DNA of 19,655 nt from a virus. Lineage: Duplodnaviria; Heunggongvirae; Uroviricota; Caudoviricetes. Positions 1 through 18,430 of the stretch are shown here, one piece after another. Position numbers and translations under genes: made by a program. The notes beneath the pieces are model-generated. The model did no database searches. It had not been told where the DNA came from and was given only the letters and a program-made list of their open reading frames with translations. Positions within the stretch are counted from its first letter, which is position 1. Every line of letters starts with the position of its first letter. The stretch is from the IMG/VR virus record IMGVR_UViG_3300029577_000167, positions 1 through 19,655 of that record, one strand, 5' to 3'.

Positions 1-201
<201 letters not shown>

Positions 202-288
202 GTTCGTTTACAACAAATCGGGTGATGTATACGGCGTTCACGCGAAGAACGACAGCTACCTTTTCGATGACTGCAAGGAGGTTAGTTG

Positions 289-501
289 ATGGCGGTTACA
301 CTGACAGGTCTGGAAATCGAAAAAACAAGCGGCTACTGGCGTGCCAAAGGGTTCAAGCAGTCCGGCGTACTGGAACGACTGGAACGTGAAGATGGGTATA
401 TTGTCCACCAGCGACGTGAATGGCACATGTACGATCCGGAAACAGGTAAGCTCGCAACGAAGGCCGGGACACTCTGGGGTCTGCTGAAGAAAATCCACTG
501 A
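289..501 (+). CDS. hypothetical protein (70 aa)
   Basis: ATG at 289 preceded by AGGAGG (276-281) with 7-nt spacer; ORF track lists it from an upstream TTG at 286. No recognisable motif. Confidence 0.5.
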   Translation: MAVTLTGLEIEKTSGYWRAKGFKQSGVLERLEREDGYIVHQRREWHMYDPETGKLATKAGTLWGLLKKIH

Positions 502-510
502 TAACACTAT

Positions 511-1110
511 CCACTGCGGTGAGTAGCCAGCTCACCGCGTGTGAATCCGGCTCATAACCACTGTAGCGAGTAGAACACCCTTCAGGTATGCACCCCAACC
601 ACTGTAGTGAGCAAACCCTCTGCCACGATATCAACTATCCACTGTAGTGAGTAAATTGGTGATTATCGGGGTCGCTATACACTGTAGTGAGTAAACAGGC
701 GTTCACTGACTACAAACAACCACTATAGAGAGTGATGGAATGCCCCCTCCAGCGGATATCCACTATGGAGAGTAAATCTTCGCTGTTTTAAACGGATATC
801 CACTCACTACAGTGGATAGAGGTCAAGTCAGCCAATTCTGCTCTTCACAGTGGATAGTCAACAATGAGGAGAGCGACGATAACCGCTGTAGAGAGTAGAC
901 TTAACAGAGATACCCAGTGACCGCTAACCTCTCAGCCCTTGTTTTATCTATGTTTGCAACCACTAACATTTACTTCGCGATTTGTGCGCACTGCCTACAG
1001 TGGTTATTCTTCGGTTTCTTTTACTCACTACAGTGGATATTGCATTTCCGATAAACAAAAAGGCTCACTATCTACTGTAGTGAGCCTTTTTACTCTCTAC
1101 AGTGGTTGGG
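511..1110. repeat. RepFIB-type iteron cluster downstream of repA (at least 12 copies of CCACTGTAGTGAGTA-like repeats in both orientations)
   Basis: Copies at 511-526, 559-574, 599-614, 639-654, 679-694, 720-735, 760-775, 883-898, 1069-1084 (forward) and 803-815, 996-1010, 1023-1037, 1097-1110 (inverted); spacing in the regular stretch about 40 bp. Confidence 0.75.
1056..1091 (-). terminator. hairpin terminator downstream of repA (bidirectional form)
   Basis: 10-bp stem AGGCTCACTA (1061-1070) / TAGTGAGCCT (1078-1087), flanked by an A-run (1056-1060) and a T-run (1087-1091); lies about 25 bp past the repA stop. Confidence 0.55.
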
Positions 1111-2166
1111 CTATTTGCGAGCCTTTGCCTTGCGCAGCTCTTCGAGAATCGCCAGTTCTTCCTTGCTCAACATGACCATTTCCCCGTCTTTTTCTTCAGG
1201 GGCAACATCGATAATGTCCTCCGGATCATCACCTGGCAAGATATCTTCTGGCTCTTCAGGCGTAGCCATAGATGGCGGCAGTGCCGAACGTAACTTCGGC
1301 CGTCTATAGTGGATGACGAAGTAGACCGAGCTGCCGCGTTTCACTTCAGTGTAATCGAGATAGCCGATCTCTCGCAGCTGCTCCATCGCCTTCCTGACTG
1401 TCGCATTCTGGGTAATGGTGCGGCTGGTTAAGTTAAGTCTGGCGCGTAAGCGAGCCAATGAGATTGGCGCCGGGTCTGGTGGCAAACTTTCAATGAAGGT
1501 GTAGAGCGCCTGCGCGGATTCCTTTCTGGAGAGTTCGTTGATGGCCCGAAGTTGCAAAAGCACCTTTTTGTCGAACTGGTAAAGTTCGAAAATCTTAGGA
1601 TCGGCCTTCAGTTCGACCGTGTCATTCTTGGTACTGTACTTTGCCGTCTGCACAAGGTGCGTAACGTAATACTCTTCAGAGCCTTTGCTGCGGAATGAGA
1701 TGGTGTTTGTGGCGATACGACTTAGAGAGCTGTCCAGGCGCTTACGTAACTTCGCGGACGATCTGGCTGTTGGTATGCCACAAAGTCTGACGAACTCGAC
1801 GAACGGCAACGTGACGGTGTCACCAACAACCTTGTGCTTGGCGAACGCGTGGATGATGCCCACCCATGTTTTGAAATCGTTATCCATATCAAGACGAAGA
1901 CCAGCAATCCTTATATCCTCGTACCCTTCGGCTTTGGCCAGAGACAGCTGTTTGAGTTCAGCGGAGGCGTCCATAGAGACCATTTGCCCCTTTCTACCCC
2001 TGGATGTCGATTTCAGCGTCGGAACGAAGAGACCAAGACGCATCAGAGCAACAGGCTGAACTGTGTTGTTGGTGTTAGGAACTAACGTAACAACTTCGCC
2101 GGTCTTTTTGTCTGTTTCGGAAAATGCTTCGCTTATCGCAATGTTTTTATTGTCGTTTACGCTCAT
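1111..2166 (-). CDS. repA: plasmid replication initiator RepA, RepFIB type (351 aa)
   Basis: Motifs [111 protein letters not shown] match the RepFIB RepA of IncF plasmids as recalled; iterons flank the gene on both sides. Confidence 0.9.
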
Positions 2167-2207
2167 TCCAAATGTCTCTTTTTATTCGACGGCTTGGGTG
2201 CCTTTAC

Positions 2208-2330
2208 TGATTACAGTGGATAGTAGCACCCATCACAGTGGTTATCCTACCGCCTACAGCGGTTTTTCTACTCTCCATAGTGGTTGATTTACTCTCTATA
2301 GTGGTTGTTCTTCTCACTATAGTGGATATC
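2208..2330. repeat. RepFIB iteron cluster upstream of repA (6 direct repeats, about 21-bp period)
   Basis: TGATTACAGTGGATAG (2208), CATCACAGTGGTTATC (2231), CGCCTACAGCGGTTTT (2250), CTCTCCATAGTGGTTGA (2270), CTCTCTATAGTGGTTGT (2291), CTCACTATAGTGGATATC (2312). Confidence 0.75.
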
Positions 2331-2371
2331 GATAACCTCTAAAGCCATGTGGCACAACGGTTTGCAGGGGC

Positions 2372-2445
2372 CGGGGATCTCTTTGGGTCTTTGTGGTTCT
2401 CTTTGGTTCTAACAGGGATCTGAATTACTGGATCGGGCCTGTGTA
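2372..2445. promoter_or_regulatory. GATC-containing origin-associated segment, copy 1
   Basis: GATC at 2376, 2417, 2431; the segment GGGGATCTCT...TGGATCGGGCCTGTGTATAAA is repeated at 2752-2835. Confidence 0.45.
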
Positions 2446-2609
2446 TAAAAATCAGATAATTACAAAATCAGGCATCACTCCCCTTCTGGGGATAATGTGT
2501 GATCGAAATAAACACGCCGCAACGCAAAATTTACAATATTTCCAAGAATATCAGCCATCTGCCGCAGAAAAACAGGCTCGGAGTTATCCAGTTAAAACAT
2601 TGTCTCCTA

Positions 2610-2712
2610 CTCACTACAGTGGATACCGACTACTCTCCAGAGAGGTTGTTTTGCTCTTCATAGCGGTTATTATGCTCTCTACAGTGGTTATTTTGCTCCC
2701 TATAGTGGATAG
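2610..2712. repeat. third iteron cluster (5 direct repeats, about 21-bp period)
   Basis: CTCACTACAGTGGATACC (2610), CTCTCCAGAGAGGTTGT (2632), CTCTTCATAGCGGTTAT (2654), CTCTCTACAGTGGTTAT (2675), CTCCCTATAGTGGATAG (2696). Confidence 0.7.
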
Positions 2713-2751
2713 TAACCCCTTCTCAAGCCAGTAACCGCAAGCGCTGGAGAC

Positions 2752-2835
2752 GATCGGGGATCTCTTTTGATCTTCTGTAGGATCTCTCTGGGGATCTAAA
2801 TATTGGATCGGGCCTGTGAATAAAGTGAATAAGTA
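2752..2835. promoter_or_regulatory. GATC-rich origin-associated segment, copy 2 (6 GATC in 58 bp)
   Basis: GATC at 2752, 2759, 2769, 2781, 2793, 2806; ends with TGGATCGGGCCTGTGAATAAAG, parallel to copy 1. Confidence 0.5.
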
Positions 2836-2908
2836 AACAGGCATTTGCAAACTCCGGTGCGCCTTATCCGTTATCGTTGCCCCGGACAAAATTATTTGAA
2901 CAAGAATT

Positions 2909-3553
2909 ATGGATCTTAAACGCACGCGCTGGGTTCGCCGTCTTGAAGATGGCTCCTACACCATTGAATCAAACACTAGTCTGAACAAACAGAAGTTGCT
3001 CTGCGACCTTTGCGGCATTGCTTCGAAATGCCCGATTAACGAAACCCGGCTTAAACTCCACGACGCCGGTGCGCATTTCCACCTAAACAGCTGCATACGT
3101 TACGTGCCACTACTAGCATTTCGTAAACCGATCATCGGATTGGATGCTCCCTACTTCAACACACTGCGCTCTGGTGTCACTTGGCGAGATCGTGTCGAAC
3201 CTGGCAAACTCGTTTGTCTGGTTGAAGCTGATACTGGAAATATCATCCGGTTCGGGAGAGTTGATAAGGTCTACTCAGGCCCGGTGGATGAAATACTGCG
3301 GAAACACAGCCGATTTAACCATCTCTGCATGGGCGGAGAGAAGATTGAGAAGGTTGGCGAAGTAATTCGCAAATCTTACGGACACTTTCTGAATGATAAC
3401 AGCCTTCTGACAGCCATTTACATTCGACATGTCGATCGGGAGTTCGACACGGAGTATCACAGTGCTGAAGAGTTGAATCTTGTAGACCCTCGTCCAAAAG
3501 CTGGGGTAATAGACATTAGCAGAGCGCGTCAGAAGCCCTCAGAGACGTTTTAA
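2909..3553 (+). CDS. hypothetical protein (214 aa), cysteine/histidine pairs suggest possible metal binding
   Basis: Long non-overlapping ORF; CDLCG...C and HFHLNSC clusters; no obvious Shine-Dalgarno; family not recognised. Confidence 0.5.
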   Translation: MDLKRTRWVRRLEDGSYTIESNTSLNKQKLLCDLCGIASKCPINETRLKLHDAGAHFHLNSCIRYVPLLAFRKPIIGLDAPYFNTLRSGVTWRDRVEPGKLVCLVEADTGNIIRFGRVDKVYSGPVDEILRKHSRFNHLCMGGEKIEKVGEVIRKSYGHFLNDNSLLTAIYIRHVDREFDTEYHSAEELNLVDPRPKAGVIDISRARQKPSETF

Positions 3554-3949
3554 AGGCAAACTCATGCTTTTTACCGGGCATAAAATATGGTGTCTTAGAA
3601 AGACACTGAGAGCTTTAGGGATTAATGCATGAGTGAATTTTATTCAAGAGCAGAAACTGTGGCCGACGGATGCGTTTGAAGACGACGCACGCAAACGCCG
3701 TAAATGTCATCTCACAACTTCACCGTCCGTTCTCCTTTTTCATTTCTTGTCATCAGTAAATGACTGCTCTCATAAAATTGCTTGTGACGTTTAGAAATCG
3801 TTGCTGCCCTATCTGATAGGTATTTACTTACTTATTTTTTTGTCATTATCATGTGCCTTTATATTCTTTTGTGTGCCGTGTTGTCTGGGTTGTATGCCTC
3901 TTATGCACGCTTAGAATTTGTATCAAAATAACCACAAAGGAAAAGACAC

Positions 3950-4228
3950 ATGACATTGCCATACGGGGTAATATCAGATCCCCATTATCATCGTTGGGAT
4001 GCTTTTGCGACAACAAACGCTGACGGGCTTAACTCTCGGCTGGAGATCCAACTGGACGCTACGAAGGAGGCGGCCAAAGCGATGAAAGCTGCTGGCTGTA
4101 AGCACATGCTGGTAGCTGGTGATACCTTCCATGTTCGCGGTGCTATATCACCTTCCGTTCTGCATTTCGTGACCGAAACTTACGAGTGGATCATCAAAGA
4201 GTTGGGTCTCAAGGTGGTAAGCTGGTGA
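3950..4228 (+). CDS. metallophosphoesterase N-terminal fragment (SbcD/Mre11-like), probably truncated
   Basis: Motif I GVISDPHYH and motif II LVAGDTFH resemble the calcineurin-like phosphoesterase / SbcD N-terminus (E. coli SbcD: TSDWHLG...IVAGDVFD); only 92 aa, whereas this family is about 400 aa. RBS AAAGGAAAAG upstream. Confidence 0.45.
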   Translation: MTLPYGVISDPHYHRWDAFATTNADGLNSRLEIQLDATKEAAKAMKAAGCKHMLVAGDTFHVRGAISPSVLHFVTETYEWIIKELGLKVVSW

Positions 4229-4262
4229 TACGAAAAAGCAAGTTCGCGTTAACAGTGACGAT

Positions 4263-4664
4263 ATGCGGCGGTTGAACGAGATTTGGCGTGGTATTAAGCC
4301 ACTGATTGACCAAGTTCATTTAGTGTTCTGTGAACTGCCAGTAGGCAGTCAATCTGCTAGAGCGATGGTTTCTTATGGTGGTTGTCTTGGCGTACTGGCG
4401 TGTGTGGATAAGCCACTGATACAGGTCACGCCAAACGAGATTAAGTACTATGTCGGGAATAAGCTGACTACGTCGAAAGAAGAGATCATTCAGTGGGCTA
4501 CGCAGAAGCAGCCAAACGCCCCGTGGTTGCGCCGGAAGCAATCGGGCAAGGAAGTGCTGGTGAATAAAAACGAGCACCTTGCGGACGCTGTCGCATCGAT
4601 TTACACCGGTATGCAAACTGATCAATTCCGTCAGGTTCGCGATGTTCTTGCTGGAATTTTATAA
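4263..4664 (+). CDS. RuvC-like Holliday junction resolvase, N-terminally truncated
   Basis: ELPVGSQSARAMVSYGGCLGVLA and C-terminal NEHLADAVASIY resemble the RuvC core and its catalytic-end motif (ADAADALAIA); the N-terminal GIDPGS-type motif with the first catalytic Asp is absent. Confidence 0.4.
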   Translation: MRRLNEIWRGIKPLIDQVHLVFCELPVGSQSARAMVSYGGCLGVLACVDKPLIQVTPNEIKYYVGNKLTTSKEEIIQWATQKQPNAPWLRRKQSGKEVLVNKNEHLADAVASIYTGMQTDQFRQVRDVLAGIL

Positions 4665-4702
4665 GTTGATAATTGATAGGTAAGTGCTTATCTATTACCA
4701 TG

Positions 4703-4730
4703 AGACCACTATATATAGTGGTCTTTTTAA
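4703..4730 (+). terminator. perfect 22-bp palindrome followed by T-run
   Basis: AGACCACTATA/TATAGTGGTCT (4703-4724) followed by TTTTT (4724-4728); lies 40 bp after the RuvC-like ORF stop. Confidence 0.5.
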
Positions 4731-4902
4731 TTGGGCTACACATAATAAGCATCGTAAAACGTAACGCCCACCGAGCCGCTGCCAGCTGCATGAAGCGCTG
4801 ACAAAGTTCGCTGTCGATTGCACTGGCCCGAGCCAGTTCGAATACCAAACCCACCAGCAATCCCGTACCAACTTCAAAACCCCCGTAGTCGAGTTCAATC
4901 CC

Positions 4903-5358
4903 CAGCTCAAAACCGTAAAAGTATTCAGTGATGGCTCCTGCCTCAAAAATCCGGGCGGGCCGGGCGGTTACGGCATCGTTCTCCAGTATCGAGGCGAAGA
5001 GCGCGAGCTTTCTGAGGGCTTCCACAGCACGACCAACAATCGGATGGAGATGATGGGCGCCCTGATTGCGCTGGAGCGTCTGAAGTACCCCTGCAACGTG
5101 ATCCTGCATTCCGACAGCCAGTATCTTAAAAACGGCATGACGCTCTGGATGAAAGGCTGGAAGCGTAACGGATGGATCACGTCTGAGAAGAAGCCAGTCA
5201 AAAACGTGGATCTCTGGAAACGTCTCGACGCGGCCGCCAGTCGTCATAATGTCCGCTGGAAGTGGGTTAAAGGCCATGCAGGTCATCGCGAGAACGAAAT
5301 GTGTGACCGTCTGGCGAAGATCGCCGCCTATTGTCGAGCGAGTCTCCGCTTTTGTTAA
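4903..5358 (+). CDS. rnhA: ribonuclease HI homologue; initiation codon unresolved
   Basis: ...[23 protein letters not shown]...[18 protein letters not shown]...HSDSQY...[16 protein letters not shown]...[20 protein letters not shown] aligns along the whole length with E. coli RNase HI as recalled. The frame is open from 4765, but no ATG/GTG/TTG exists in frame before 5044 (the codon at the position of the E. coli Met is CAG). Confidence 0.75.
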
Positions 5359-5603
5359 GTCCCCGCTGAATAATCCCCTCACCCGCGGTGAGCAGATGGA
5401 GCTGGCAAGGTGGTTTCTGCGTATCCATGAGCAGATGGAAGTTTTTAAACAGTTGCCGGATCTGCCCATTACAGACGGCCAAATTCAGTGTGCCACTTCA
5501 GTACGGTCGACGATGACAACGACGCAAACCTGCTTTTCGTCAAATCCGAAATCATAAAGTTGCGCAGGGAGAGAGAGAAATCGACGCAGAGCAGGCCCGC
5601 AAT

Positions 5604-5819
5604 ATGTGGGACGAGGCAGAAAACGCTGATGACGTAAAAGAAAGTTGCTGCTGTTTCGGTGTCGGTAACGAACTGCTGAGTCTGTTTGGTGACGATCCGT
5701 GGTATGCCGGTTGGCCAACGGTGCCAAACCCCAGATACCAATACCTGGAACGTATCATGAACGCGGTACGTAATGGGCTGAAAGAGCTTCACAATCAGAT
5801 GAGAGAAGCAATCGGTTAA
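5604..5819 (+). CDS. hypothetical small protein (71 aa)
   Basis: ORF with ATG start; no clear SD; contains a CCC triplet (SCCCFG). Confidence 0.35.
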   Translation: MWDEAENADDVKESCCCFGVGNELLSLFGDDPWYAGWPTVPNPRYQYLERIMNAVRNGLKELHNQMREAIG

Positions 5820-5857
5820 GTGCTATAGTCAGGCGCTTTTATATTTATGGAGTGAAT

Positions 5858-6556
5858 ATGAAAAATATCCTACTGGCATCATTGTTGGTGGCATCGCCGG
5901 CTGTATTTGCAGCCAGCTTTGACTGCCAAAAGGCTTCGGCAGAAATCGAACACAAAATCTGCGATAACGAACGCCTGTCAAAATTAGACGAACAACTTAG
6001 CTCTACCTATTCCAACGCACTCAAAGCAAACCCGGGGGACGCAGACGCCTTAAAGACGGTTCAGCGTCAATGGGTAAGTATGCGTGGAAAACTCACTGGT
6101 GATAAGACTCTGGAGTTGGCTTATCTAATCCAAATTAATGGCCTCAAGAGTTTGGATGGTTCGGCCAGCACTGCGGTGGTCAATGAGACACCAAAGCCTG
6201 TGCAGAAACAGCCTGAAGTTCAGGAAAAGACAAGCAAGGCAGACACAAAGCAGGCTGAGAGCGGTAAAAAGCTAACTCTGGAGTCATTCCGAGCTAAGTA
6301 TATTGAAGTTGACGGTGAATACTACAGCACGACATCCCTTCCCAGAGGGAGTTCGTTCTTGTTCACCTGCGCAAGTCGTATCGCAGATGACCAGGTGAAT
6401 ATTTGGAAGAAGGTGGCAGCCAAAGAGGGCAAGATCGATCTCTTCTTTGAACTTGAGAATCGAATACATACCGCAATGCTGAATGCCAATTTTCAGAAGC
6501 TAAATAGTGATTTAACTAAAACAGGCATTTGCGATCTGATTACTGCTGTTCCGTAA
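5858..6556 (+). CDS. secreted protein with LprI-like (DUF1311) domain
   Basis: Signal peptide MKNILLASLLVASPAVFA; FDCQKASAEIEHKICDNERLSKLDEQL...QRQW pattern typical of DUF1311 / lysozyme-inhibitor LprI N-terminal domain; GGAG 5 nt upstream of ATG at 5858 (ORF track starts at GTG 5852). Confidence 0.65.
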   Translation: MKNILLASLLVASPAVFAASFDCQKASAEIEHKICDNERLSKLDEQLSSTYSNALKANPGDADALKTVQRQWVSMRGKLTGDKTLELAYLIQINGLKSLDGSASTAVVNETPKPVQKQPEVQEKTSKADTKQAESGKKLTLESFRAKYIEVDGEYYSTTSLPRGSSFLFTCASRIADDQVNIWKKVAAKEGKIDLFFELENRIHTAMLNANFQKLNSDLTKTGICDLITAVP

Positions 6557-6564
6557 GCCAGATA

Positions 6565-6583
6565 AGGCCATTATTTGTGGCCT
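6565..6583. terminator. hairpin AGGCCA-ttatttg-TGGCCT, bidirectional terminator candidate
   Basis: Stem-loop between convergent genes 5858-6556 (+) and 6612-6815 (-); immediately followed by the palindrome TTAAACAATTTGTTTAA (6583-6599). Confidence 0.45.
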
Positions 6584-6611
6584 TAAACAATTTGTTTAAT
6601 TAGTGGTGTAA

Positions 6612-6815
6612 TTATTGGAATCCCAGGCGAACTAAATCCATTGGGCAGAACAGATCTTCCACACCTTCGATAGACACGCAGTCAGAGCGGCGTAATTGTT
6701 CTTCTGATTTGCCTTCTCCGCAGATTTCCTTGATGACTCCCGTTGCACCATTCGTTGCCACCATCACTCGGCTGCCGGTAGTGATAGTGTTACGGTTGCG
6801 ATCATAGGTCTTCAT
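6612..6815 (-). CDS. YdfZ-like small protein (67 aa)
   Basis: MKTYDRNRNTITTGSRVMV... resembles the E. coli YdfZ family as recalled; strong RBS AAAGGAGGAA upstream on the minus strand. Confidence 0.6.
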   Translation of the reverse strand: MKTYDRNRNTITTGSRVMVATNGATGVIKEICGEGKSEEQLRRSDCVSIEGVEDLFCPMDLVRLGFQ

Positions 6816-7002
6816 CGTTTCCTCCTTTCACATGGGTCAAATCAGGTTTCAAAAATTGCCGTTTTCCATGTAGGTGCGATTTGCAAAATCTCAAGCGCCA
6901 AAACAAATTGTTTTCACCATCTTGTTATTCAATTAACCCGTAAAGTTGACCAGTACCGTAATAAATACCACTGTTTATATGTGCAGTATTGCGAGGCGAG
7001 CA

Positions 7003-7269
7003 ATGGGCAGCAAGAATTCTAAATATGTGATCGTCTATAGGGGCGAAGCACTCAAGCACCTAATACCCGGACAGTTCGTTTTCTTCCAACGTGAAAAAGA
7101 ATACGGTGGGGGGTTCTGGCTTGGTAAAACGCATGAGGATGGGTTCGAATTTGTGCTGGAGCAACCCACTTCACTAAGTTACGGGCTTGCGTATCTGATC
7201 AGATTGTCGAGTGTCGAAGCCAGGTATATGGAGTTTGTTGATGACATAGACGACTTCAAACTCACCTAG
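7003..7269 (+). CDS. hypothetical protein (88 aa)
   Basis: ATG at 7003 preceded by GAGG; ORF track extends to 6946 without an RBS. Confidence 0.5.
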   Translation: MGSKNSKYVIVYRGEALKHLIPGQFVFFQREKEYGGGFWLGKTHEDGFEFVLEQPTSLSYGLAYLIRLSSVEARYMEFVDDIDDFKLT

Positions 7270-7310
7270 TCATCCCTTAAACATCTTGTTTTCTGCCTTT
7301 CGTTATTTGA

Positions 7311-7343
7311 GATAATAATACCAATAAGAAAACAAATTGTTTA
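7311..7343 (+). promoter_or_regulatory. conserved upstream cassette (type A), copy before gene 7355
   Basis: GATAATAATACCAATAAGAAAACAAATTGTTT, followed by AAGGAG and ATG at 7355. Confidence 0.55.
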
Positions 7344-7354
7344 AGGAGTTAATC

Positions 7355-7591
7355 ATGTTCGGAACCGCGAAAGAAATTATCGAAAAGCTGGAGAACTACC
7401 CAGAAGACGAGCCGCTGCTGATGGTGATGTGGCACAAGGAAGATGTAGGTGAAGGGCGACCAGACCTGACTGACGAACAGTGCGTTCAGGTTTTGCGAAA
7501 AATCAAAGAGTGCCATGATGCCAGCGTCGGCGTGAATTGGGATGTCATTTCTGACACGGCCAACATTCTGTTTCCAAAGGAGAAGGCATGA
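7355..7591 (+). CDS. hypothetical acidic protein (78 aa)
   Basis: AAGGAG RBS 6 nt upstream of ATG; stop overlaps the start of the next gene (ATGA). Confidence 0.6.
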   Translation: MFGTAKEIIEKLENYPEDEPLLMVMWHKEDVGEGRPDLTDEQCVQVLRKIKECHDASVGVNWDVISDTANILFPKEKA

Positions 7592-7908
7592 TGCTGAAAA
7601 TCACCGAATCGTATAAGACGGCGGTGATCAGCACCGCCCACGTCACGGCAGCGGATTCAGAACGGCTACCCATTGCCTGCTTCGACCCACTTACTGATCG
7701 CGGGTTGAATTGGGTACACGGTACACAGTATGGATGGATTGTTCGTGCTGGAATGCGAGGGAATGACTGGAAGGAAGAATTGCGTGATTACGGCATTTCC
7801 CAAGAGGCGATCTCTAACATACAGGCCATACGGGATGCCGGGTATGATTCGGTACAATTTGACTGTGATGCGGAGCTGGTGGATGGAATGCCAGCATGGG
7901 ATTGGTAG
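7588..7908 (+). CDS. hypothetical protein (106 aa), translationally coupled to upstream gene
   Basis: AAGGAGAAGG RBS; ATGA overlap with 7355-7591. Confidence 0.6.
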   Translation: MMLKITESYKTAVISTAHVTAADSERLPIACFDPLTDRGLNWVHGTQYGWIVRAGMRGNDWKEELRDYGISQEAISNIQAIRDAGYDSVQFDCDAELVDGMPAWDW

Positions 7909-7923
7909 ATATAACTACTAGCA

Positions 7924-8550
7924 ATGGCGGGAATAATTACCTGGAAAGTTGATATCATATACCCGCTTGTATTTCAAAATGGAATGGATGTAATGGAAAT
8001 CGATACTTTAGAAAAAAAATCAGTTAAAAACCTCTACGCGTGGCTTATAGCAATACTGCCGTTTGTTGTCAGCGTCCCCCCTGCTGAGTACGACAATTAC
8101 GTTATGGTGATTTCGTTCGTCATTGGGCTTGGACTGCTGGTCGCCGATCGCATGAATTTGACTGAGGCAGGCTATGAGCCACCATCATTCTTATGTGGGT
8201 TCTTTATCCCCCCTGTGTATCTCTGGAAACGAGCGACGGTTCTTGGAAGTAACCGACTGCTGTTTATCGTATGGATTGTTGCCTTTGCTGCATCATTTTT
8301 CGTGTATAGCTTCAACGCAGATTCAGCGCTTGAAGAAGCTGCTTGCCCTATAGTTACCACTATTCTGAAAGAAAATAACGGTTCAGAAGCATCTAAATGC
8401 ATGAAGGTAACAATTCAGGACAAAGTGACGGACAAGTTCTACAAAGCCACGGCTACACTGGATAACGGTAATGACATTAACATCACTATCGAAATGATCG
8501 GTGACGAGAATTTCTACGTTCGCGTGCCTAATTACTACCTAAACGACTAA
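7924..8550 (+). CDS. predicted membrane protein (about 3 TM segments; start uncertain, alternatives 7984/7993)
   Basis: Hydrophobic segments LYAWLIAILPFVVSV, VMVISFVIGLGLLVA, LLFIVWIVAFAASFFVY; soluble C-terminal region. Confidence 0.5.
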   Translation: MAGIITWKVDIIYPLVFQNGMDVMEIDTLEKKSVKNLYAWLIAILPFVVSVPPAEYDNYVMVISFVIGLGLLVADRMNLTEAGYEPPSFLCGFFIPPVYLWKRATVLGSNRLLFIVWIVAFAASFFVYSFNADSALEEAACPIVTTILKENNGSEASKCMKVTIQDKVTDKFYKATATLDNGNDINITIEMIGDENFYVRVPNYYLND

Positions 8551-8987
8551 CGGCTGCAACTCGTTGACATTGGCGGTCACAAATTGAGGATTTCTATAAG
8601 AGTCCGTTGATCGCCACTTCCCCCACCTCTCCAACCTACCCCAGCCCAGGGGTGACAAGGCATTTAAGCCAATTACACCCATAAGAAAACAAATAAATAA
8701 CACGTCAACGAAAAGTCAACGCTTTCCTCTGATTTGGTCTAAAAAGTTGACGTTTTCGCAAGCCATCTCTTATACCCAAAATCCTGCGCACCAGAATCCA
8801 TCTCCCTGCGACCAAAACGTCAAAAACGACTCGTGATATCACTCAAAAACAGAAGCGCTCAGAAGCGCTCCCGTTGCGTTATATTGGGCATCTAAACAAG
8901 TTGTTTTCAGGCATAAGAAAACAAGTTAACAACCCCCACAGGAAACCCAGAGACGCCATTACCCACAATCCCGGAAACACCCACCTC

Positions 8988-9073
8988 TTCCTGTCAGACT
9001 ACCGAAAAGACCCACCTCATTGCCCCAGGCTACAGACCACCCACCTAATATTCCCAGGCAACCGAGAACGCGG
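8988..9073 (+). repeat. three tandem 28-31-bp C/A-rich repeats (core CAGRCWACMGA...CCCACCT)
   Basis: Units 8988-9018, 9019-9046, 9047-9073; paralogous triplet at 12989-13074. Confidence 0.7.
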
Positions 9074-9646
9074 TTCGCACGCGCAAACCCCGATACGTCA
9101 TTACCCAATACACGGAGAAGAACAGCCAGAACGAAACCCCGGACAAACCCAGACAAGAACAGGAGCCGTCACAATCTCGTTTACCCACCATTACCCCGAA
9201 AGAGAGCGCAAATTCCTGAATAGCAGGGAACGCCATTACTTCATATGCGGAGAACAACTAAAGCGCCCTACTGCCATTACCCACACTTTCATCATTTCAC
9301 GTAAACGAAGAGAAAAGCGCACCTGCCATTACTCCATACACGGAGAAGAACACTCACCAAAACGACGAGAACAACCCAGACGAAAACACAGAGAAGAACC
9401 ACCTCAAGAAGAACGAAACCACATATGCCGGTAGAAAGAACAAACCACCCATTTCACCCAAAGGAATACTCGCCGTATAGAGCGTTATCAGAGGGAAGGT
9501 TTATGCCCACATAAGAGAGAAAATTCGTGGGAGGTATAAGTGGGAAGGGAAGGAGGGGTATCGCCACTTTTTCCGCATAAATTCAAGCCATAGTTTTCAT
9601 CCCCCGTAACGTCCCTTTCCACCCCTTCGGTCAGCCTTCGGGCCAT

Positions 9647-9825
9647 CCGGGAAAGCTATGTCCCTTTTCAGGAACGGGAGCGTCGCCGCAGGGAAAAGGC
9701 TTGAGGTTTTCAGGGAAACGGTGGGAATCCCGCTATACGAACCGGGGAAAGGCTGGCTGCCGGTCGGGAAACGGGTACATCCCGGTACAGAGTGAGGGAC
9801 GACTGCGGGAGCGGTGCGGGAAATC
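9647..9825 (+). repeat. GGGAAA(C/A)GG-type direct repeats, about 21-bp period
   Basis: CCGGGAAAGC 9647, CAGGAACGGG 9669, GCAGGGAAAAGG 9687, CAGGGAAACGG 9711, CGGGGAAAGG 9743, TCGGGAAACGGG 9763, GCGGGAAATC 9816. Confidence 0.65.
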
Positions 9826-10093
9826 TTCGGGAGTGCGCCTTACTCTTCACTCGCCTGAAAATCGCGGGGGAGTGTCATTCCCTCTCGTGCAGCTACTGGA
9901 CTCCATTCTGCCAGACCATCATTGGGTCTCAAGCTATTTCAGTAGGTTTTCGGGGAGAAGGATATTCTGCCCACCAGCCCCGTGGCGCGCGTAGAGCAGA
10001 ATATCGTAAATACTGGCTCCCGTGTCGTTCCCGGATATTCACTGCCCAGCCTGGCTTTCACGACATAAAATCCTTTTCCGCCTTTGTCTTATT

Positions 10094-10128
10094 GCGATAA
10101 TAACACCAACAAGTAAACAACATGTTTA
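10094..10128 (+). promoter_or_regulatory. conserved upstream cassette (type A) before gene 10160
   Basis: GCGATAATAACACCAACAAGTAAACAACATGTTTA; palindrome AAACAACATGTTT at 10115-10127. Confidence 0.55.
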
Positions 10129-10159
10129 GACGTTATATAAACGAAGTGAGGATGAAGAG

Positions 10160-10378
10160 ATGATTAAGATGCCTGTGACGGTTGAGGTGTGGGGCGTGGA
10201 TTCCCTGGCTGAGTGTCTGGATGCAGTGGGGCCGGAGTTGTACCGCAAGTTGTGGTCGTTCGTCCCGGCAGAAGGGGAATCGCCCAAAGGGAAGGATATC
10301 TGGCACCTGCTGAGTGAAGATGAAAAGCGGGAGCTGGTGGACGCGGTACACAGCGAGTTCCCGGGCGACGAAGATTAA
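10160..10378 (+). CDS. hypothetical small acidic protein (72 aa; 17 D/E vs 7 K/R)
   Basis: GAGG RBS 8 nt upstream; followed by hairpin terminator at 10385-10410. Confidence 0.6.
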   Translation: MIKMPVTVEVWGVDSLAECLDAVGPELYRKLWSFVPAEGESPKGKDIWHLLSEDEKRELVDAVHSEFPGDED

Positions 10379-10384
10379 GAGTGA

Positions 10385-10410
10385 GGCCACCAGCACGGTG
10401 GCTTTTGTCG
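10385..10410 (+). terminator. intrinsic terminator (GCCACC-agcac-GGTGGC + TTTTG)
   Basis: Hairpin and T-run immediately after the stop of 10160-10378. Confidence 0.6.
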
Positions 10411-10450
10411 CTATTAACCTCCGGGGCAGCGCAGCACCGTAACGATATAC

Positions 10451-10506
10451 TTTGTGGCCGTTTTCTTACTGGTATTGTTTACGCAATTCAGAAAACAACA
10501 TGTTTA
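10451..10506 (+). promoter_or_regulatory. conserved upstream cassette (type B, about 56 bp) before gene 10518
   Basis: TTTGTGGCCGTTTTCTTACTGGTATTGTTTACGCAATTCAGAAAACAACATGTTTA; near-identical to 10942-10997. Confidence 0.55.
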
Positions 10507-10517
10507 AGGATTGCGTT

Positions 10518-10847
10518 ATGTTTGCAAATATCGACATCAACCAAATCAAGAAAATGACTCAAAAAGAGTTTGACCAGTTTTATGAGTTAGAAGGTTGGTC
10601 TTCCACGCTGATCAATTCGCGCTGGGTGCTTGAGCTGATGACTCGTGATGATGCTCCTGCTTTGATTATTTGCGACCTGGGTGATGATGCTGACTTTATG
10701 GATATGAGCGAATTTTGTGTGGATACATACAACCGCAGCCAGAAGTACTACTTCACATGCGATAGCGAGAATGACGTGATTTCTAAGCTCTATCTTCACC
10801 TTGTCCAGCATTGGGACGTTCAGGAGTTCCTTGATGTATTCGCGTAA
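10518..10847 (+). CDS. hypothetical acidic protein (109 aa; 21 D/E vs 8 K/R)
   Basis: AAGGA RBS; ATG at 10518 (ORF track begins upstream at 10452, inside the cassette). Confidence 0.6.
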   Translation: MFANIDINQIKKMTQKEFDQFYELEGWSSTLINSRWVLELMTRDDAPALIICDLGDDADFMDMSEFCVDTYNRSQKYYFTCDSENDVISKLYLHLVQHWDVQEFLDVFA

Positions 10848-10941
10848 ACCCAACCAAAGCCAGCACCGCCTGCTGGCTTAACTTCTCTGTAGCCGCAGGG
10901 AAGAACCACCTTTAGATAATTCATGTGCCTGAGCAATATGC

Positions 10942-10997
10942 TTTGTAGCCGTTTTTACACTGGTATTATTTACGCCATTGAGAAAACAATTTGTTTA
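10942..10997 (+). promoter_or_regulatory. conserved upstream cassette (type B) before gene 11008
   Basis: TTTGTAGCCGTTTTTACACTGGTATTATTTACGCCATTGAGAAAACAATTTGTTTA. Confidence 0.55.
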
Positions 10998-11007
10998 CGG
11001 AGTGGTG

Positions 11008-11319
11008 ATGAATACTTCATTGGTGCTGGGTCTTGCTGAAGGTCAGGAGAGAAAAGAAAAACCAACCTTAATGGGGCATCTCACATTGCTGGATATCGTA
11101 GCGAATGGGACTTCTATCCGTCTGTTTCGTGAAAAAGCCATTACCTTCGACGCGGGCAATTTTACGCGCTATGTGATGGTAGTTCGTCGCCAGCGTGGAA
11201 GAGGGTGGATGTCGGTCCAGAAAATGTGGCCAGAGGACCAGCTTGAACTGGCGCTGATGGAAGCCAACCGTGTCGCCCAACAAGAGATCCAACGAGCGTC
11301 TGTTCAGGCGGTAGCTTAA
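11008..11319 (+). CDS. hypothetical protein (103 aa)
   Basis: GGAG 5 nt upstream of ATG 11008; terminator at 11354-11382. Confidence 0.55.
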   Translation: MNTSLVLGLAEGQERKEKPTLMGHLTLLDIVANGTSIRLFREKAITFDAGNFTRYVMVVRRQRGRGWMSVQKMWPEDQLELALMEANRVAQQEIQRASVQAVA

Positions 11320-11353
11320 ACATGTGCAAGCAGTAGTTAGTCGAATGTACGAC

Positions 11354-11382
11354 AGCCCCGCCAATCCTTCGGGGCTTTTTTG
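11354..11382 (+). terminator. intrinsic terminator (AGCCCC-gccaatccttc-GGGGCT + TTTTTT)
   Basis: GC-rich hairpin followed by a 6-T run. Confidence 0.7.
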
Positions 11383-11440
11383 TATTGTAAGTACTTACTT
11401 ATGATAATAAAATTAAAAATTAAACACTAAGGAGAGTGAA

Positions 11441-11836
11441 ATGACCGTTAAACGCGAAAATCTGACCCTGGATATGTATTATGCATCAGAGACGGAAAAT
11501 GGAGACAAAGTTGCAAAAATTACAATTGTGCTACGCGATAATGCCTCCGGCGAAGAAGTTCACACCAGTACCTTAACTCGCACCGGCGAGGCCACAAAGG
11601 GAAAATATTCGGTGCGTTACCAAAGCATCAGTAATGCTTCTGACCCTTTACTGATAAAACTGGAAACTCATTTCCGTGGCGCGGATCAGACGTTGTTTGA
11701 AAATTTGATGAAAAAGGTCGATGCGGTTTATACATCGAGTTTAAATACCAATAGTACCTGGATGGGACAACACGGTCTGCGAATAATCTCCGGCGAAAAG
11801 ATCGACACCATTGTCCCTGAAAGCGTATTCGCTTAA
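11441..11836 (+). CDS. hypothetical protein (131 aa)
   Basis: AAGGAGAG RBS; AT-rich leader containing the perfect palindrome GTAAGTACTTAC (11387-11398); terminator at 11847-11872. Confidence 0.6.
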   Translation: MTVKRENLTLDMYYASETENGDKVAKITIVLRDNASGEEVHTSTLTRTGEATKGKYSVRYQSISNASDPLLIKLETHFRGADQTLFENLMKKVDAVYTSSLNTNSTWMGQHGLRIISGEKIDTIVPESVFA

Positions 11837-11846
11837 TCCTCTTTGA

Positions 11847-11872
11847 ATGGCGCGTAAACCGCGCCATTTTCT
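11847..11872 (+). terminator. intrinsic terminator (ATGGCGCG-taaacc-GCGCCAT + TTTTCTT)
   Basis: Hairpin plus T-rich tail after stop at 11836. Confidence 0.65.
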
Positions 11873-11953
11873 TATTCCCGATAACAATTTGTTTTCTGCC
11901 TTATCTGATTTGTGAAAATGATTTCACTGAAGCAACTTAATAAGGATACCATC

Positions 11954-12328
11954 ATGGGACTTGATATCTATATCGAGACGCAGCCTAAAAACGATCTGAA
12001 TAACGAGGCATCCAGAAAGCAGGTTGCTTACTTCCGTAAGTTCAATGCGCTCGTTGGGTGGATGGAGCGCAACGTAGGTGAAGTCGAAAATTGTGAGCTT
12101 TTAGAATTAACGATGAATGACATTTGTTTTCTGAAGGCTCATTTGATGCACATAAACGAAAGTAATTGCGAAGTGTACTTACCTACCCGGGAAGGTTTTT
12201 TCTTCGGCAGTCAGGAGTACGATGAAGGTTACTGGCATGACGTGGATAAGCTGAAAAAACTTGTGGAAGACCTGATCAGGAACCACGACTTTCACAATAA
12301 CAGACTGACGTTCCGTGCCTGGTGGTAA
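11954..12328 (+). CDS. hypothetical protein (124 aa)
   Basis: AAGGA RBS before ATG 11954; shortened cassette copy (CGATAACAATTTGTTTTCTGCC) at 11871-11900. Confidence 0.55.
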   Translation: MGLDIYIETQPKNDLNNEASRKQVAYFRKFNALVGWMERNVGEVENCELLELTMNDICFLKAHLMHINESNCEVYLPTREGFFFGSQEYDEGYWHDVDKLKKLVEDLIRNHDFHNNRLTFRAWW

Positions 12329-12330
12329 AT

Positions 12331-12474
12331 ATGGGCGATTTCAAGAAACGCCTGAAGGAGAGAGCCGAGATGGTCAGAAAGCGAAACGCCTCTTCTGTCA
12401 TAAGATACGCAAGGCAGTTTAGTCGCAACAACAAATCAGTTGAGGAAAAGATCCTTAGCGTAATCGGGCGATAA
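12331..12474 (+). CDS. possible small basic protein (47 aa), starts 2 nt after the upstream stop
   Basis: MGDFKKRLKERAEMVRKRNASSVIRYARQFSRNNKSVEEKILSVIGR; below the ORF-track size cutoff; followed by hairpin 12481-12506. Confidence 0.3.
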   Translation: MGDFKKRLKERAEMVRKRNASSVIRYARQFSRNNKSVEEKILSVIGR

Positions 12475-12610
12475 TTATTAAGGCCACCAGCATTGGTGGT
12501 CTTAAATGACTTTTAATAACCGAAGGTTAGTTTGAAACCTGGCTATCAACTTCCAGAACCTTTCTTGTGTATTCAGCCTGTATTAACTTCTTTTATGCCT
12601 TATCTACACT

Positions 12611-12645
12611 GCGATAATTACACCAACAAGAAAACAATATGTTTA
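12611..12645 (+). promoter_or_regulatory. conserved upstream cassette (type A) before gene 12664
   Basis: GCGATAATTACACCAACAAGAAAACAATATGTTTA; palindrome at 12632-12644. Confidence 0.55.
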
Positions 12646-12663
12646 CGCAGTGAGGATATGCTC

Positions 12664-12945
12664 ATGACTGATTTCACCATTACCCCTAAAGCACAAAATG
12701 TATTCCTTGAATCATGGCTGGACTTGCCGGAAACAGAACAGCAAGAAATGGATCATGTGGAATATGACGAGCAGGTAAGCACGCGATTCTTCCACTTTGA
12801 GGGCTGCGTTTACGACATTGCCGACTTCATGCGAGATGACCGCTTCCCTGAATGGCACGCAAGCTATCCACTAAACGCCTTCGCCATGCTGATGATCCGT
12901 GTGGATGATTCAGGGGATACCATCGACATCGGTCTGCTCCACTAA
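12664..12945 (+). CDS. hypothetical small acidic protein (93 aa; 20 D/E vs 5 K/R)
   Basis: GAGG 8 nt upstream of ATG 12664; hairpin 12951-12977 after the stop. Confidence 0.6.
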   Translation: MTDFTITPKAQNVFLESWLDLPETEQQEMDHVEYDEQVSTRFFHFEGCVYDIADFMRDDRFPEWHASYPLNAFAMLMIRVDDSGDTIDIGLLH

Positions 12946-12988
12946 AGAGTAAGGCCACCAATGCTGGTGGCCTTAAATGACCATCCTG

Positions 12989-13074
12989 TTTCCCGCAGGC
13001 TAAAAACACCAACCTCTTACCTCCAGGCAACCGACAAACCCACCTGTTCCCGTCCGGCTACCGCAACTTTCCAC
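12989..13074 (+). repeat. three tandem about 29-bp C/A-rich repeats, paralogous to 8988-9073
   Basis: TTTCCCGCAGGCTAAAAACACCAACCTC / TTACCTCCAGGCAACCGACAAACCCACCTG / TTCCCGTCCGGCTACCGCAACTTTCCAC; CCAGGCAACCGA core matches 9055-9066 exactly (12/12). Confidence 0.7.
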
Positions 13075-13094
13075 TTTGACGCCTTATTCGTACA

Positions 13095-13130
13095 ACGATA
13101 ATTAACACCAACAAGAAAACAATTTGTTAT
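13095..13130 (+). promoter_or_regulatory. conserved upstream cassette (type A) before gene 13150
   Basis: CGATAATTAACACCAACAAGAAAACAATTTGTTAT; a possible -35 TTGACG at 13075-13080. Confidence 0.55.
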
Positions 13131-13149
13131 TTACGATAAGGAATTAATC

Positions 13150-13632
13150 ATGAATTTTATCGCTACTGTAAACGCACCCGCACATGGCAATATCGCTGTA
13201 ACGTTCTCTGATATTGAAAAACGAGTACTTGGTGCATGGCGCGACAATGAGACGGTAGAACTGTCAGCACAAGAAAAATGCATTATTGCACGCGACATCA
13301 TTTGCAAACGTCGTTACTCACGGGTAATTGAGAAAGCGTATGTCGCAAATTCTGGCTTCGGAACATTTGTCTTCCCGGTACGCTCCGGGCGATTCTGCCA
13401 GTCCAAGCTGATTGAGTTCGCTACGCAGATTTCTGTCTGGATTAAAACTCAATCGTCGTTCAAATTTTCCGACGATGAAGCAGTATCGCAGGGGATGCGG
13501 ATCGCCAACAATGCAATAAAATGCAAAAACATTACGTATGCCGCTGGCGTTGACACATGGAAACTGTTTTGCGCTAACTTTATGCTGAATGTATACGCAA
13601 GCAACCGCATCCACATCCTTGATGGCGTGTAA
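13150..13632 (+). CDS. hypothetical protein (160 aa)
   Basis: AAGGA RBS; hairpin GGGCC-agaaac-GGCCC + TTTCTCT at 13641-13662. Confidence 0.6.
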   Translation: MNFIATVNAPAHGNIAVTFSDIEKRVLGAWRDNETVELSAQEKCIIARDIICKRRYSRVIEKAYVANSGFGTFVFPVRSGRFCQSKLIEFATQISVWIKTQSSFKFSDDEAVSQGMRIANNAIKCKNITYAAGVDTWKLFCANFMLNVYASNRIHILDGV

Positions 13633-13677
13633 CTGAGAAGAGGGCCAGAAACGGCCCTTTCTCTATAGCCACCAGCT

Positions 13678-13818
13678 GCCGCAGGGAAATTTTCAGAAAC
13701 GGCGAGGAACGCATTCATGAGCCGACGGGAAACGGCCAAGATTTTTTCGGGAAACGGCGGGGGTCGCCTTTATGTAGAAAACTGAGCGGGAGAAACCCGG
13801 AATCGCGCCAGAAATTGC
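13678..13818 (+). repeat. second cluster of GGGAAACGG-type repeats, about 22-bp period
   Basis: GCCGCAGGGAAATTTTC 13678, CAGAAACGGCG 13694, CGACGGGAAACGGCC 13723, TTCGGGAAACGGCGG 13747, GCGGGAGAAACCCGG 13785, CGCCAGAAATTGCG 13805. Confidence 0.6.
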
Positions 13819-14231
13819 GTAGCGGCGCTGGGGTAGCGCTGGTGGGGGTTTCAGCCCCTGGGCCATCCAGATAGCTTTCGCTATGTGATTATGTGAATCC
13901 GTGGGTAAATCACTGTAAGCGCGTACACGTTGCCCAACGTGGCAATCATATGCGAGCGGATACAAAACAACACAAAGAGCCGATCCGCGCCGACAAATAA
14001 ACGCGGATCACATAGCAAGACTAAAAGCCAATGATTAACCATACTCTATAGCGCAATATAACGCGTTTTAAGCGCGTTAATGTGTTAAGTAATGTGTATG
14101 TACTAACAAGGATATAAAAGCGCGTCTATGGCGTTATTTTGGTGCTTATTTTTATGTTGTTGGAGCGAGTTAAAGACAATAAAAAACGCGCTAATGATGG
14201 CGCGTTATGGTGGGAGTATTGGAAACGAAAA

Positions 14232-14250
14232 AAGCGCCCATAGTGGGCGC
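14232..14250 (-). terminator. 19-bp perfect palindrome AGCGCCCATAGTGGGCGCT, terminator for gene 14257-14487
   Basis: Flanked by AAAAAA on the plus strand (a U-run on the minus-strand transcript); identical copy at 14507-14525. Confidence 0.6.
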
Positions 14251-14256
14251 TCGATT

Positions 14257-14487
14257 TTATTTGTGTAAACTAATTTTGAATCCCATTTCTACAAACGCTT
14301 TTAACATTAAAAATATATCAGCGTCATTCACGTCTGCTTTTTTTCGCTCCTGGTCGTTCAATAAGTCAATTTTGCGCGTTGTTTCATTTATAAACTCGAC
14401 TGCGCGCCCAGCGATCCCAGCGATCCCAGCGATGCGATTAACATAATATTCATTATGGACGTTAACGCCAGCGATAAGAACAAACAT
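14257..14487 (-). CDS. hypothetical small protein (76 aa) containing IAG-IAG-IAG from a 9-bp tandem repeat
   Basis: AAGGAG RBS 8 nt upstream on the minus strand; low-GC region. Confidence 0.5.
   Translation of the reverse strand: MFVLIAGVNVHNEYYVNRIAGIAGIAGRAVEFINETTRKIDLLNDQERKKADVNDADIFLMLKAFVEMGFKISLHK
14407..14433. repeat. perfect 3x tandem repeat of CCCAGCGAT (in frame inside ORF 14257-14487)
   Basis: Units at 14407-14415, 14416-14424, 14425-14433. Confidence 0.9.
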
Positions 14488-14506
14488 GATTAAGCTCCTT
14501 AAAACT

Positions 14507-14525
14507 AGCGCCCATAGTGGGCGCT
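14507..14525 (-). terminator. second copy of 19-bp palindrome AGCGCCCATAGTGGGCGCT, terminator for gene 14538-15188
   Basis: Identical to 14232-14250; lies 13 bp past the stop of the 216-aa gene. Confidence 0.55.
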
Positions 14526-14537
14526 ATATCCATCTAA

Positions 14538-15188
14538 TTACGCTTTGAAAGCATCAGCCAGATAGTTATAAAAATCATTTTTAACGAAGCGATATTGCTG
14601 TGATCCGTTTTTCGCTGCACCCATTCCTTTGATTTTTTCGACCAGTCCCAGACGTTCGCAAAGATTGATAAGCTGGTTGGCTTGAGTGTATCCTGCGTCT
14701 AATTTTATTTCGTTGGCTTTTTTCGCTTCATTCATTAAATCGAAAACAGCGCCATTGGTGAACGTGTCGATCTCGTCGTTAATCATATCGATTAAAGCGA
14801 ATACACGAGATCCGGACATATCAGCGACGGAATAAACACACTTTCCAGCTTTAATAGATTTAACCAGATAAACCAGTTTTTCGAGTGAATAGCTATTGGT
14901 CATAGCTTCACGGAAAAACGCTTCAGGTGCTTGTTTACTTGCTTTAATCGCGTAGTAAAAGATACCAGCTAATTTCTCATCATTAACAGCGTTTAAAACG
15001 TTGTTGGTGAAGTATGCTAGTTTGGTAGACGCTGCAAGCATGTTAGCTTTATCCGCTTTTGTGTGTGTACCATTTTTATAATGATTGTTATAAGTCTGAG
15101 TAGCGTTGTTGGCTGCAACTTGTAACTCATTAGCGATAACCACAGCAGCGTCGATAATGGATTTTTTAGAAATGGTAACGTTAGACAT
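14538..15188 (-). CDS. hypothetical protein (216 aa) in AT-rich acquired segment
   Basis: AAGGA RBS 8 nt upstream on the minus strand; N/K/A-rich composition distinct from neighbours; no motif recognised. Confidence 0.6.
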   Translation of the reverse strand: MSNVTISKKSIIDAAVVIANELQVAANNATQTYNNHYKNGTHTKADKANMLAASTKLAYFTNNVLNAVNDEKLAGIFYYAIKASKQAPEAFFREAMTNSYSLEKLVYLVKSIKAGKCVYSVADMSGSRVFALIDMINDEIDTFTNGAVFDLMNEAKKANEIKLDAGYTQANQLINLCERLGLVEKIKGMGAAKNGSQQYRFVKNDFYNYLADAFKA

Positions 15189-15461
15189 GATGTTAATCCT
15201 TATGTAATATTGATAACTTAATTTGTTGTTTGTTTATCGTTAGCGTGTTCGCTTTCGATGTGACTAATTATCGATATACAGAAATTAAAATCAAGAGTTT
15301 TTTATGCGGGAACGAAAAAATTTTTCTCCAATAAAAATCAAAATCTTAGAAATAAAACGCGTTTTCTCGAAGGTGTTGCCTAAATAAATTCTCTATTCAG
15401 CCAATCACCCTTATATATTTAAATTGGAATCGAGTTTGTGGGAAATAAATATAACGGGAAG

Positions 15462-15498
15462 TGACGAATAAAATAATAACCGGACTTAGCCGGTTATT
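15462..15498 (-). terminator. intrinsic terminator of the helicase-side operon
   Basis: AATAACCGG-acttag-CCGGTTATT hairpin (15475-15498) followed on the minus strand by a U-rich tract. Confidence 0.6.
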
Positions 15499-15510
15499 AC
15501 CCTTATAGAT

Positions 15511-16038: not shown

Positions 16039-16042
16039 ATCG

Positions 16043-16465: not shown

Positions 16466-16524
16466 TGTACCGAACAAAATCCTTATCTTTACGAAAATCA
16501 TGGCGCCTCAAGGCGCCATAATGC

Positions 16525-16803: not shown

Positions 16804-16812
16804 GCTTACTCT

Positions 16813-18366: not shown

Positions 18367-18430
18367 AAACCTCTTTCCTTCGTGCCTTTTGTATGGTAAT
18401 TGGCTATTATGTTAAGTAAGTGCTTACACA

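Follow-up and report, generated by a model that had tools for sequence, protein, structure and literature searches.

Positions 4765-5358 of the window, by which we mean the whole 19,655-nucleotide stretch of DNA analyzed here, hold an open reading frame that encodes an RNase HI homologue and has no canonical start codon ahead of its first catalytic residue. The question raised by this locus is how such a frame came about and whether it can be translated. The original prediction offered three options, namely that initiation is non-canonical, that a start-codon mutation has inactivated the gene, or that the sequence contains an error. We find it highly probable that the feature is a deletion-generated pseudogene, the remnant of an rnhA gene from an SSU5/pHCM2-type phage-plasmid.

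The open frame and its RNase H domain

The frame is as first described. When read and translated, it is open from 4765 to a TAA at 5356-5358 (197 codons), with a TAA at 4762-4764 closing it upstream. The similarity to RNase HI had been placed from about 4903 onward, and Q47 of the translation does fall at 4903: phmmer aligned residues 48-189 with residues 2-142 of the 155-residue chromosomal RNase HI of E. coli (E = 5e-64 to 1e-61 across PDB chains; ~1e-61 for 1rnh/2rn2 and mutants). The Pfam RNase_H profile (PF00075) was matched over positions 3-140 of 141 with 156.4 bits, against a cut-off of 25.8. All catalytic residues were located on the plus strand by alignment to the PDB chains: D at 4930-4932 in DGSC (E. 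coli D10), E at 5047-5049 in NNRME (E48), D at 5113-5115 in SDSQY (D70), H at 5275-5277 in GHAGH (H124) and D at 5305-5307 in CDRLA (D134). With a full-length domain, four carboxylates and H124, the encoded protein would be classed as a Type 1 RNase H.

Both the open reading frame list and a codon walk gave ATG 5044 as the first in-frame ATG, GTG or TTG, in agreement with the original prediction, and re-inspection found no in-frame canonical start before it. This codon is the equivalent of E. coli M47 and lies, as had also been claimed, downstream of the DGSC aspartate; a product initiated there would have 104 amino acids and lack the first catalytic Asp. No start codon with a ribosome-binding site, as expected of an expressible gene, stands upstream of that first catalytic residue. 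The 26 open codons at 4765-4841 (plus strand) were formerly non-coding and are in the rnhA frame only through a deletion junction described below. They include CTG codons at 4786 and 4798, and no ATG, GTG or TTG. In local shuffles, the lack of a stop over such a stretch had a probability of P = 0.27 and the lack of a canonical start P = 0.33. The open stretch is unremarkable and represents chance read-through into non-coding DNA.

Intact relatives and the deletion junctions

Megablast matched the locus to Salmonella phage SSU5 (98.2% identity) and to 331 PLSDB plasmids from hosts in the genera Escherichia, Salmonella, Klebsiella, Enterobacter, Yersinia, Citrobacter and others, with each match confined to window positions ~4842-5332. 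Judged by sequence similarity, the region belongs to the SSU5/pHCM2 phage-plasmid group. The rnhA of this group (WP_063085666.1; SSU5_090/YP_006906722.1; pHCM2 of S. Typhi CT18) has the same RNase H domain as the fragment and shares with it a run of 21 N-terminal linker residues. Phage-plasmid RNase H normally has a basic N-terminal extension of 46 residues, and its C-terminal tail is unlike that of E. coli RNase HI, whereas the window copy differs from the E. coli gene in having no start codon at all.

The intact rnhA on p1919D62-2 (WP_063085666.1) has 202 codons and opens GGAGCCAAAATG, encoding MTTKTPARQHTGCRTKSKARYQTHQQ onward. Comparison with orthologues, which the original prediction had proposed as a check, showed that intact relatives start at an ATG and are not start-less. 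In phage SSU5 and the plasmids, this ATG lies behind GGAGCCAAA, in which GGAG is the Shine-Dalgarno sequence, and is 20 codons upstream of the 5′ breakpoint of the window copy; the gene ends 19 codons past the 3′ breakpoint. The SSU5 annotation gives a longer version of the same frame with a GTG start. In a four-way alignment of the window, SSU5 and two plasmids, the window was identical from the Y21 codon to the Y183 codon and unrelated on either side. Thus, compared with the intact gene, the window copy is without the promoter region, the GGAG Shine-Dalgarno sequence, the ATG, codons 1-20 and codons 184-202. The intact gene contains no in-frame ATG, GTG or TTG between codon 1 and codon 88, and it is because of this, together with the loss of codons 1-20, that no canonical start precedes 5044.

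Nucleotide identity of 98-100% over 4842-5332 places the fragment with this orthologue group. Its ends and surroundings depart from the group: it comprises codons 21-183 alone, and its native neighborhoods on both sides, consisting of a methyltransferase gene and a small ORF upstream and a 166-aa ORF downstream, have been deleted. The native 5′ end was contiguous in 196 of the 199 matching PLSDB records when searched with a 201-nt probe across the native Shine-Dalgarno sequence, the ATG and the breakpoint, and a probe across the native 3′ end was contiguous in 142 of 147 PLSDB records.

The breakpoints were read from a BLAST comparison of the window with 43 kb of pYUXYEH3934-1 (L006; reference coordinates are counted in that piece). 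Window positions 3-200, 199-4225, 4219-4846, 4842-5332, 5331-15204 and 15469-19015 matched reference positions 1985-2182, 3394-7421, 11984-12611 (99.8% identity; 100% with reference L004), 20272-20762 (100%), 27375-37238 and 37475-41017, respectively. These blocks are strictly collinear and are separated by four gaps, in which 1,211, 4,562, 7,660 and 6,612 bp of the reference are absent from the window; the corresponding junctions are referred to as J1 to J4. The rnhA fragment is a 491-bp island (4842-5332, plus strand) that comprises codons 21-183 of 202, includes the whole RNase HI domain, and is 100% identical to the pYUXYEH3934-1 gene over its length, as opposed to 98.2% for SSU5. Its flanks match the same plasmids at ~100%, elsewhere in those plasmids.

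At J3 (4842-4846), the parental sequences share the 5-nt microhomology ATACC, and reference positions 12612-20271 (7,660 bp) are missing. This deletion took the MazG-like gene, thyA, and the genes for DHFR, an AAA ATPase, a 3′-5′ exonuclease and an N6-adenine methyltransferase, as well as the rnhA promoter, Shine-Dalgarno sequence, ATG and codons 1-20. At J4 (5331-5332), the shared sequence is the dinucleotide TT, and reference positions 20763-27374 (6,612 bp) have been lost; they held rnhA codons 184-202 as well as the opening 4-5 codons of the next gene that was kept. When viewed base by base, the parental sequences diverge on each side of ATACC and of TT, and no insertion sequence ends were found at J3 or J4. 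Both breakpoints are therefore collinear with an intact relative and coincide with short microhomology without mobile-element ends, as expected of a deletion remnant. J2 (~4219-4225), seen by BLAST as a 7-nt overlap, consists of 2 shared nucleotides (AA) followed by GCTGG, which is one base out of register in the parents. J1 (199-200) marks the 1,211-bp deletion relative to pYUXYEH3934-1; the block that ends there, at window positions 3-200, encodes an IS3-family-like transposase motif (…FHSDQGSH…).

The same deletions damaged the genes on either side. At J2, the 4,562-bp deletion severed a metallophosphoesterase gene (SbcD-like; window 3950-4228) after codon 92 and took an AAA ATPase gene and two hypothetical genes. 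The 628-bp backbone island that follows (4219-4846, plus strand), found full length and at 100% identity in at least 10 E. coli plasmids, carries a truncated hypothetical gene, its terminator and part of an intergenic region. The truncated gene, ORF 4263-4664, is the C-terminal part of the 189-aa protein WP_025670519.1, of which ~41 codons have been lost. Positions 4765-4841 are intergenic in the reference (12430-12694), between this 189-aa hypothetical gene and a MazG-like PRA-PH gene. Beyond J4, the rnhA frame ends in a foreign tail (5333-5358, plus strand) of eight codons, CRASLRFC, and a TAA, the T of the first codon being that of the junction; the tail derives from the 5′ part of the neighboring 79-aa hypothetical gene, read in another frame. 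That gene (native N-terminus MNDLLVERVS…) lost its native start at J4. It is now fused to an ATG that lies within the rnhA fragment in the +1 frame, producing a chimeric ORF (5249-5557, plus strand) without a Pfam match. Exact-product look-ups returned no record for this 102-aa chimeric ORF or for the 104-aa ORF from ATG 5044. On the minus strand, a 323-aa ORF (4498-5469) overlaps the whole rnhA fragment and both junctions and has no Pfam match, and for these reasons it is most likely a shadow ORF.

One alternative is that the window retains an ancestral or alternative modular arrangement into which the references gained DNA by insertion, such that an ATG-containing 5′ end was never present here. 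Phage-plasmids are indeed mosaic and exchange modules (Pfeifer & Rocha 2024, PMC10879196). Against this, the junctions sever four conserved ORFs, namely rnhA, which is cut on either side, and the genes for the metallophosphoesterase, the 189-aa protein and the 79-aa protein, which argues for deletion in the window lineage over insertion in the references. The full-length arrangement is common to phage SSU5 and ~200 plasmids from six or more genera, and the flanks are collinear pieces of one backbone. We regard the insertion scenario as scarcely credible.

A second alternative is that the junctions are false, produced by a chimeric contig or a collapsed assembly, and that the start codon disappeared in this way. 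A query spanning the flanks found no record with 80% coverage among phages, PLSDB or complete RefSeq E. coli genomes, and neither junction string was found in a scan of the GTDB representative genomes; the absence of the junctions from complete plasmid, phage and E. coli genome records would fit an artefact. Searches with the junction 29-mers (J3, GAGCCAGTTCGAATACCAAACCCACCAGC; J4, GATCGCCGCCTATTGTCGAGCGAGTCTCC) nevertheless recovered J3 from two further sequences, the 38-kb, isolate-derived IMG/VR contig UViG_2534681663_000013 and the 12.5-kb metagenomic contig NODE-3231 of ENA ERZ772897. The J4 string is present in the IMG/VR contig, which was the only sequence returned when IMG/VR was searched for intermediates with J4 and without J3. 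J2, J3 and J4 are exact in both contigs, which differ from the window by 9 SNPs over 14.4 kb (IMG/VR) and 5 SNPs over 12.5 kb (ENA). One of the supporting contigs has ~2.8x coverage, as given in its name. Independent assemblers would not make the same four false joins in three sequences that differ at 5-9 SNP positions elsewhere. Identical junctions in three distinct sequences exclude an error of sequencing or assembly, to which we assign practically no probability, and indicate that the lineage is circulating. The sequence error envisaged in the original prediction is rejected on these grounds. As for a start-codon mutation, the idea of inactivation is broadly right and the mechanism is another: the ATG, the Shine-Dalgarno sequence and 20 codons were taken by the 7.66-kb deletion.

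The rnhA remnant would thus have arisen as serial microhomology-mediated (illegitimate) deletions stripped phage and DNA-metabolism genes from the element. The 7.66-kb deletion would have joined intergenic DNA before the MazG-like gene to rnhA codon 21, and the 6.6-kb deletion would have joined rnhA codon 183/184 to codon 5 of the small downstream gene. Replication slippage or illegitimate recombination at microhomologies of 2-5 nt is the probable mechanism.

Prospects for expression of the fragment

It counts against a pseudogene that both deletions spared the complete RNase H domain and its five catalytic residues. In addition, nothing interrupts the frame, and the functional gene is matched exactly by two of the three known copies. 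An advocate of selection could read the sparing of the domain by both deletions as non-random. It is conceivable, then, that an active RNase H is still made from the remnant, either from a CUG start at 4786 or 4798 or by coupling to the small ORF at 4790-4801, and that selection has kept the domain. The PF00075 domain with its DEDD and H residues lies complete between the deletions, and the frame is open from 4765 with two in-frame CTG codons.

The features surrounding the fragment argue against such expression. CTG 4786 and CTG 4798 are the only in-frame near-cognate codons, and the 20 nt before each (GCCCACCGAGCCGCTGCCAG and GCTGCCAGCTGCATGAAGCG) contain no Shine-Dalgarno-like motif. Programmed non-AUG initiation, exemplified by the AUU start of infC and rare CUG starts, would be recognized by a near-cognate codon that is properly spaced from a Shine-Dalgarno sequence and conserved in orthologues, and this was not found for either CTG. 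The orthologues use an ATG behind GGAG, and the DNA that bears the CTG codons is intergenic in the parents; the non-canonical initiation considered in the original prediction is accordingly disfavored.

An intrinsic-terminator-like hairpin at 4702-4725 (plus strand; 10-bp stem and T-run), which ends the upstream gene and is also present in the reference (12467-12490), is positioned such that transcription from upstream would reach it before the rnhA fragment. A promoter scan found no sigma-70-like site between this hairpin and the fragment; the one weak sigma-70-like site, at 4673-4701, abuts the hairpin. The scan of the reference gave the same picture and did not place the native promoter of the MazG-like operon relative to J3.

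Two other routes into the frame were considered and rejected. To enter the frame from the out-of-frame mini-ORF ATG-AAG-CGC-TGA (4790-4801), ribosomes would have to shift by -1, for which a slippery heptamer is absent. Readthrough from the upstream gene is precluded by the TAA at 4762-4764, which closes the frame; ORF 4263-4664 is in another frame and is followed by the terminator hairpin.

Variation among the copies bears on the same point. In UViG_2534681663_000013, the substitution T5263G changes TGG to GGG, replacing the equivalent of E. coli W120 with Gly, and changes Ser to Arg in the chimeric ORF. This conserved Trp is altered in one of the three known remnant copies and unchanged in the other two; with three copies only, T5263G may be taken as a single anecdotal hint of relaxed constraint. 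A sister plasmid, described below, lacks rnhA altogether.

Taken with the Trp-to-Gly change and the sister plasmid, these features lead us to consider an expressed, active enzyme very unlikely. A narrower version, in which the shrunken plasmid benefits from the spared domain through low-level CUG initiation at 4786 or 4798 on read-through transcripts, is a long shot; CUG initiation in E. coli proceeds at ~1% or less of AUG efficiency. If true, it would be a natural case of a start-less gene rescued by near-cognate initiation. We infer that no active enzyme is translated from the rnhA remnant. Because the fragment is 100% identical to the functional gene, the deletion must be recent, and the intact frame is for that reason uninformative about selection.

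Erosion of the phage-plasmid

Erosion of the same kind is seen in the remainder of the window. The repA, ParB and helicase genes are kept, and the module for phage morphogenesis seems to have been lost. There is a 371-bp scrap at 19011-19381 from the minor-tail-protein-L and C40-peptidase genes, into which an ORF for the ParB N-terminal domain (18431-19318) runs in frame. The scrap is followed by a tail-fibre-like C-terminus and a terminal inverted repeat at ~19582-19655, which we take to be that of IS1.

A sister mini-plasmid, pRHB27-C18_3 (CP057419.1, 52 kb), resembles the window in its backbone of IncFIB-type repA, ParB and DEAD-box helicase and in its large deletions of phage and DNA-metabolism genes. 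Its whole rnhA gene has been removed by a deletion of reference positions 13997 to 26391. It differs from the window in that this is a single 12.4-kb deletion with other breakpoints and in carrying IS100, whereas the window kept the 491-bp rnhA island. With pRHB27-C18_3 lacking the gene and the native ends of rnhA not contiguous in a few PLSDB records, plasmid maintenance evidently does not require the rnhA region, which has disappeared on repeated occasions.

Two other regions of the window were noted. Positions ~8550-10450 span ~1.9 kb without a convincing ORF, containing only low-complexity mechanical ORFs, and no CDS is listed for their counterpart in the reference (30593-32553). The IS100 insertion of pRHB27-C18_3 falls at window ~9839-9850. 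No RNA genes were detected anywhere in the window, this region included, by Rfam (at the gathering threshold) or by ARAGORN. Positions 15205-15468 (264 bp) did not align to pYUXYEH3934-1, which has 236 unrelated bp in their place; this looks like a small replacement between collinear blocks. UViG_2534681663_000013 departs from the window after 15065, just before this segment.

The formation of plasmids from phage-plasmids by gene loss has been documented for P1-like elements (Pfeifer & Rocha 2024, PMC10879196), and not specifically for SSU5-like ones. Based on the comparisons above, the window looks like the product of the same gene-loss process in an SSU5-like element. The rnhA remnant, as a gene fragment left by deletion, is of a kind already known, and it has little consequence for RNase H biology, as it reveals neither a new initiation mechanism nor a new enzyme. 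For annotation, this means marking the frame as a pseudogene or fragment of rnhA; it should not be called from ATG 5044 or given a non-canonical start. The window does document an SSU5-type phage-plasmid lineage, represented in at least three assemblies, in which microhomology-mediated deletions, one after another, are reducing the element to a plain plasmid. This erosion parallels the one described for P1-like elements and is mildly useful as wider context.
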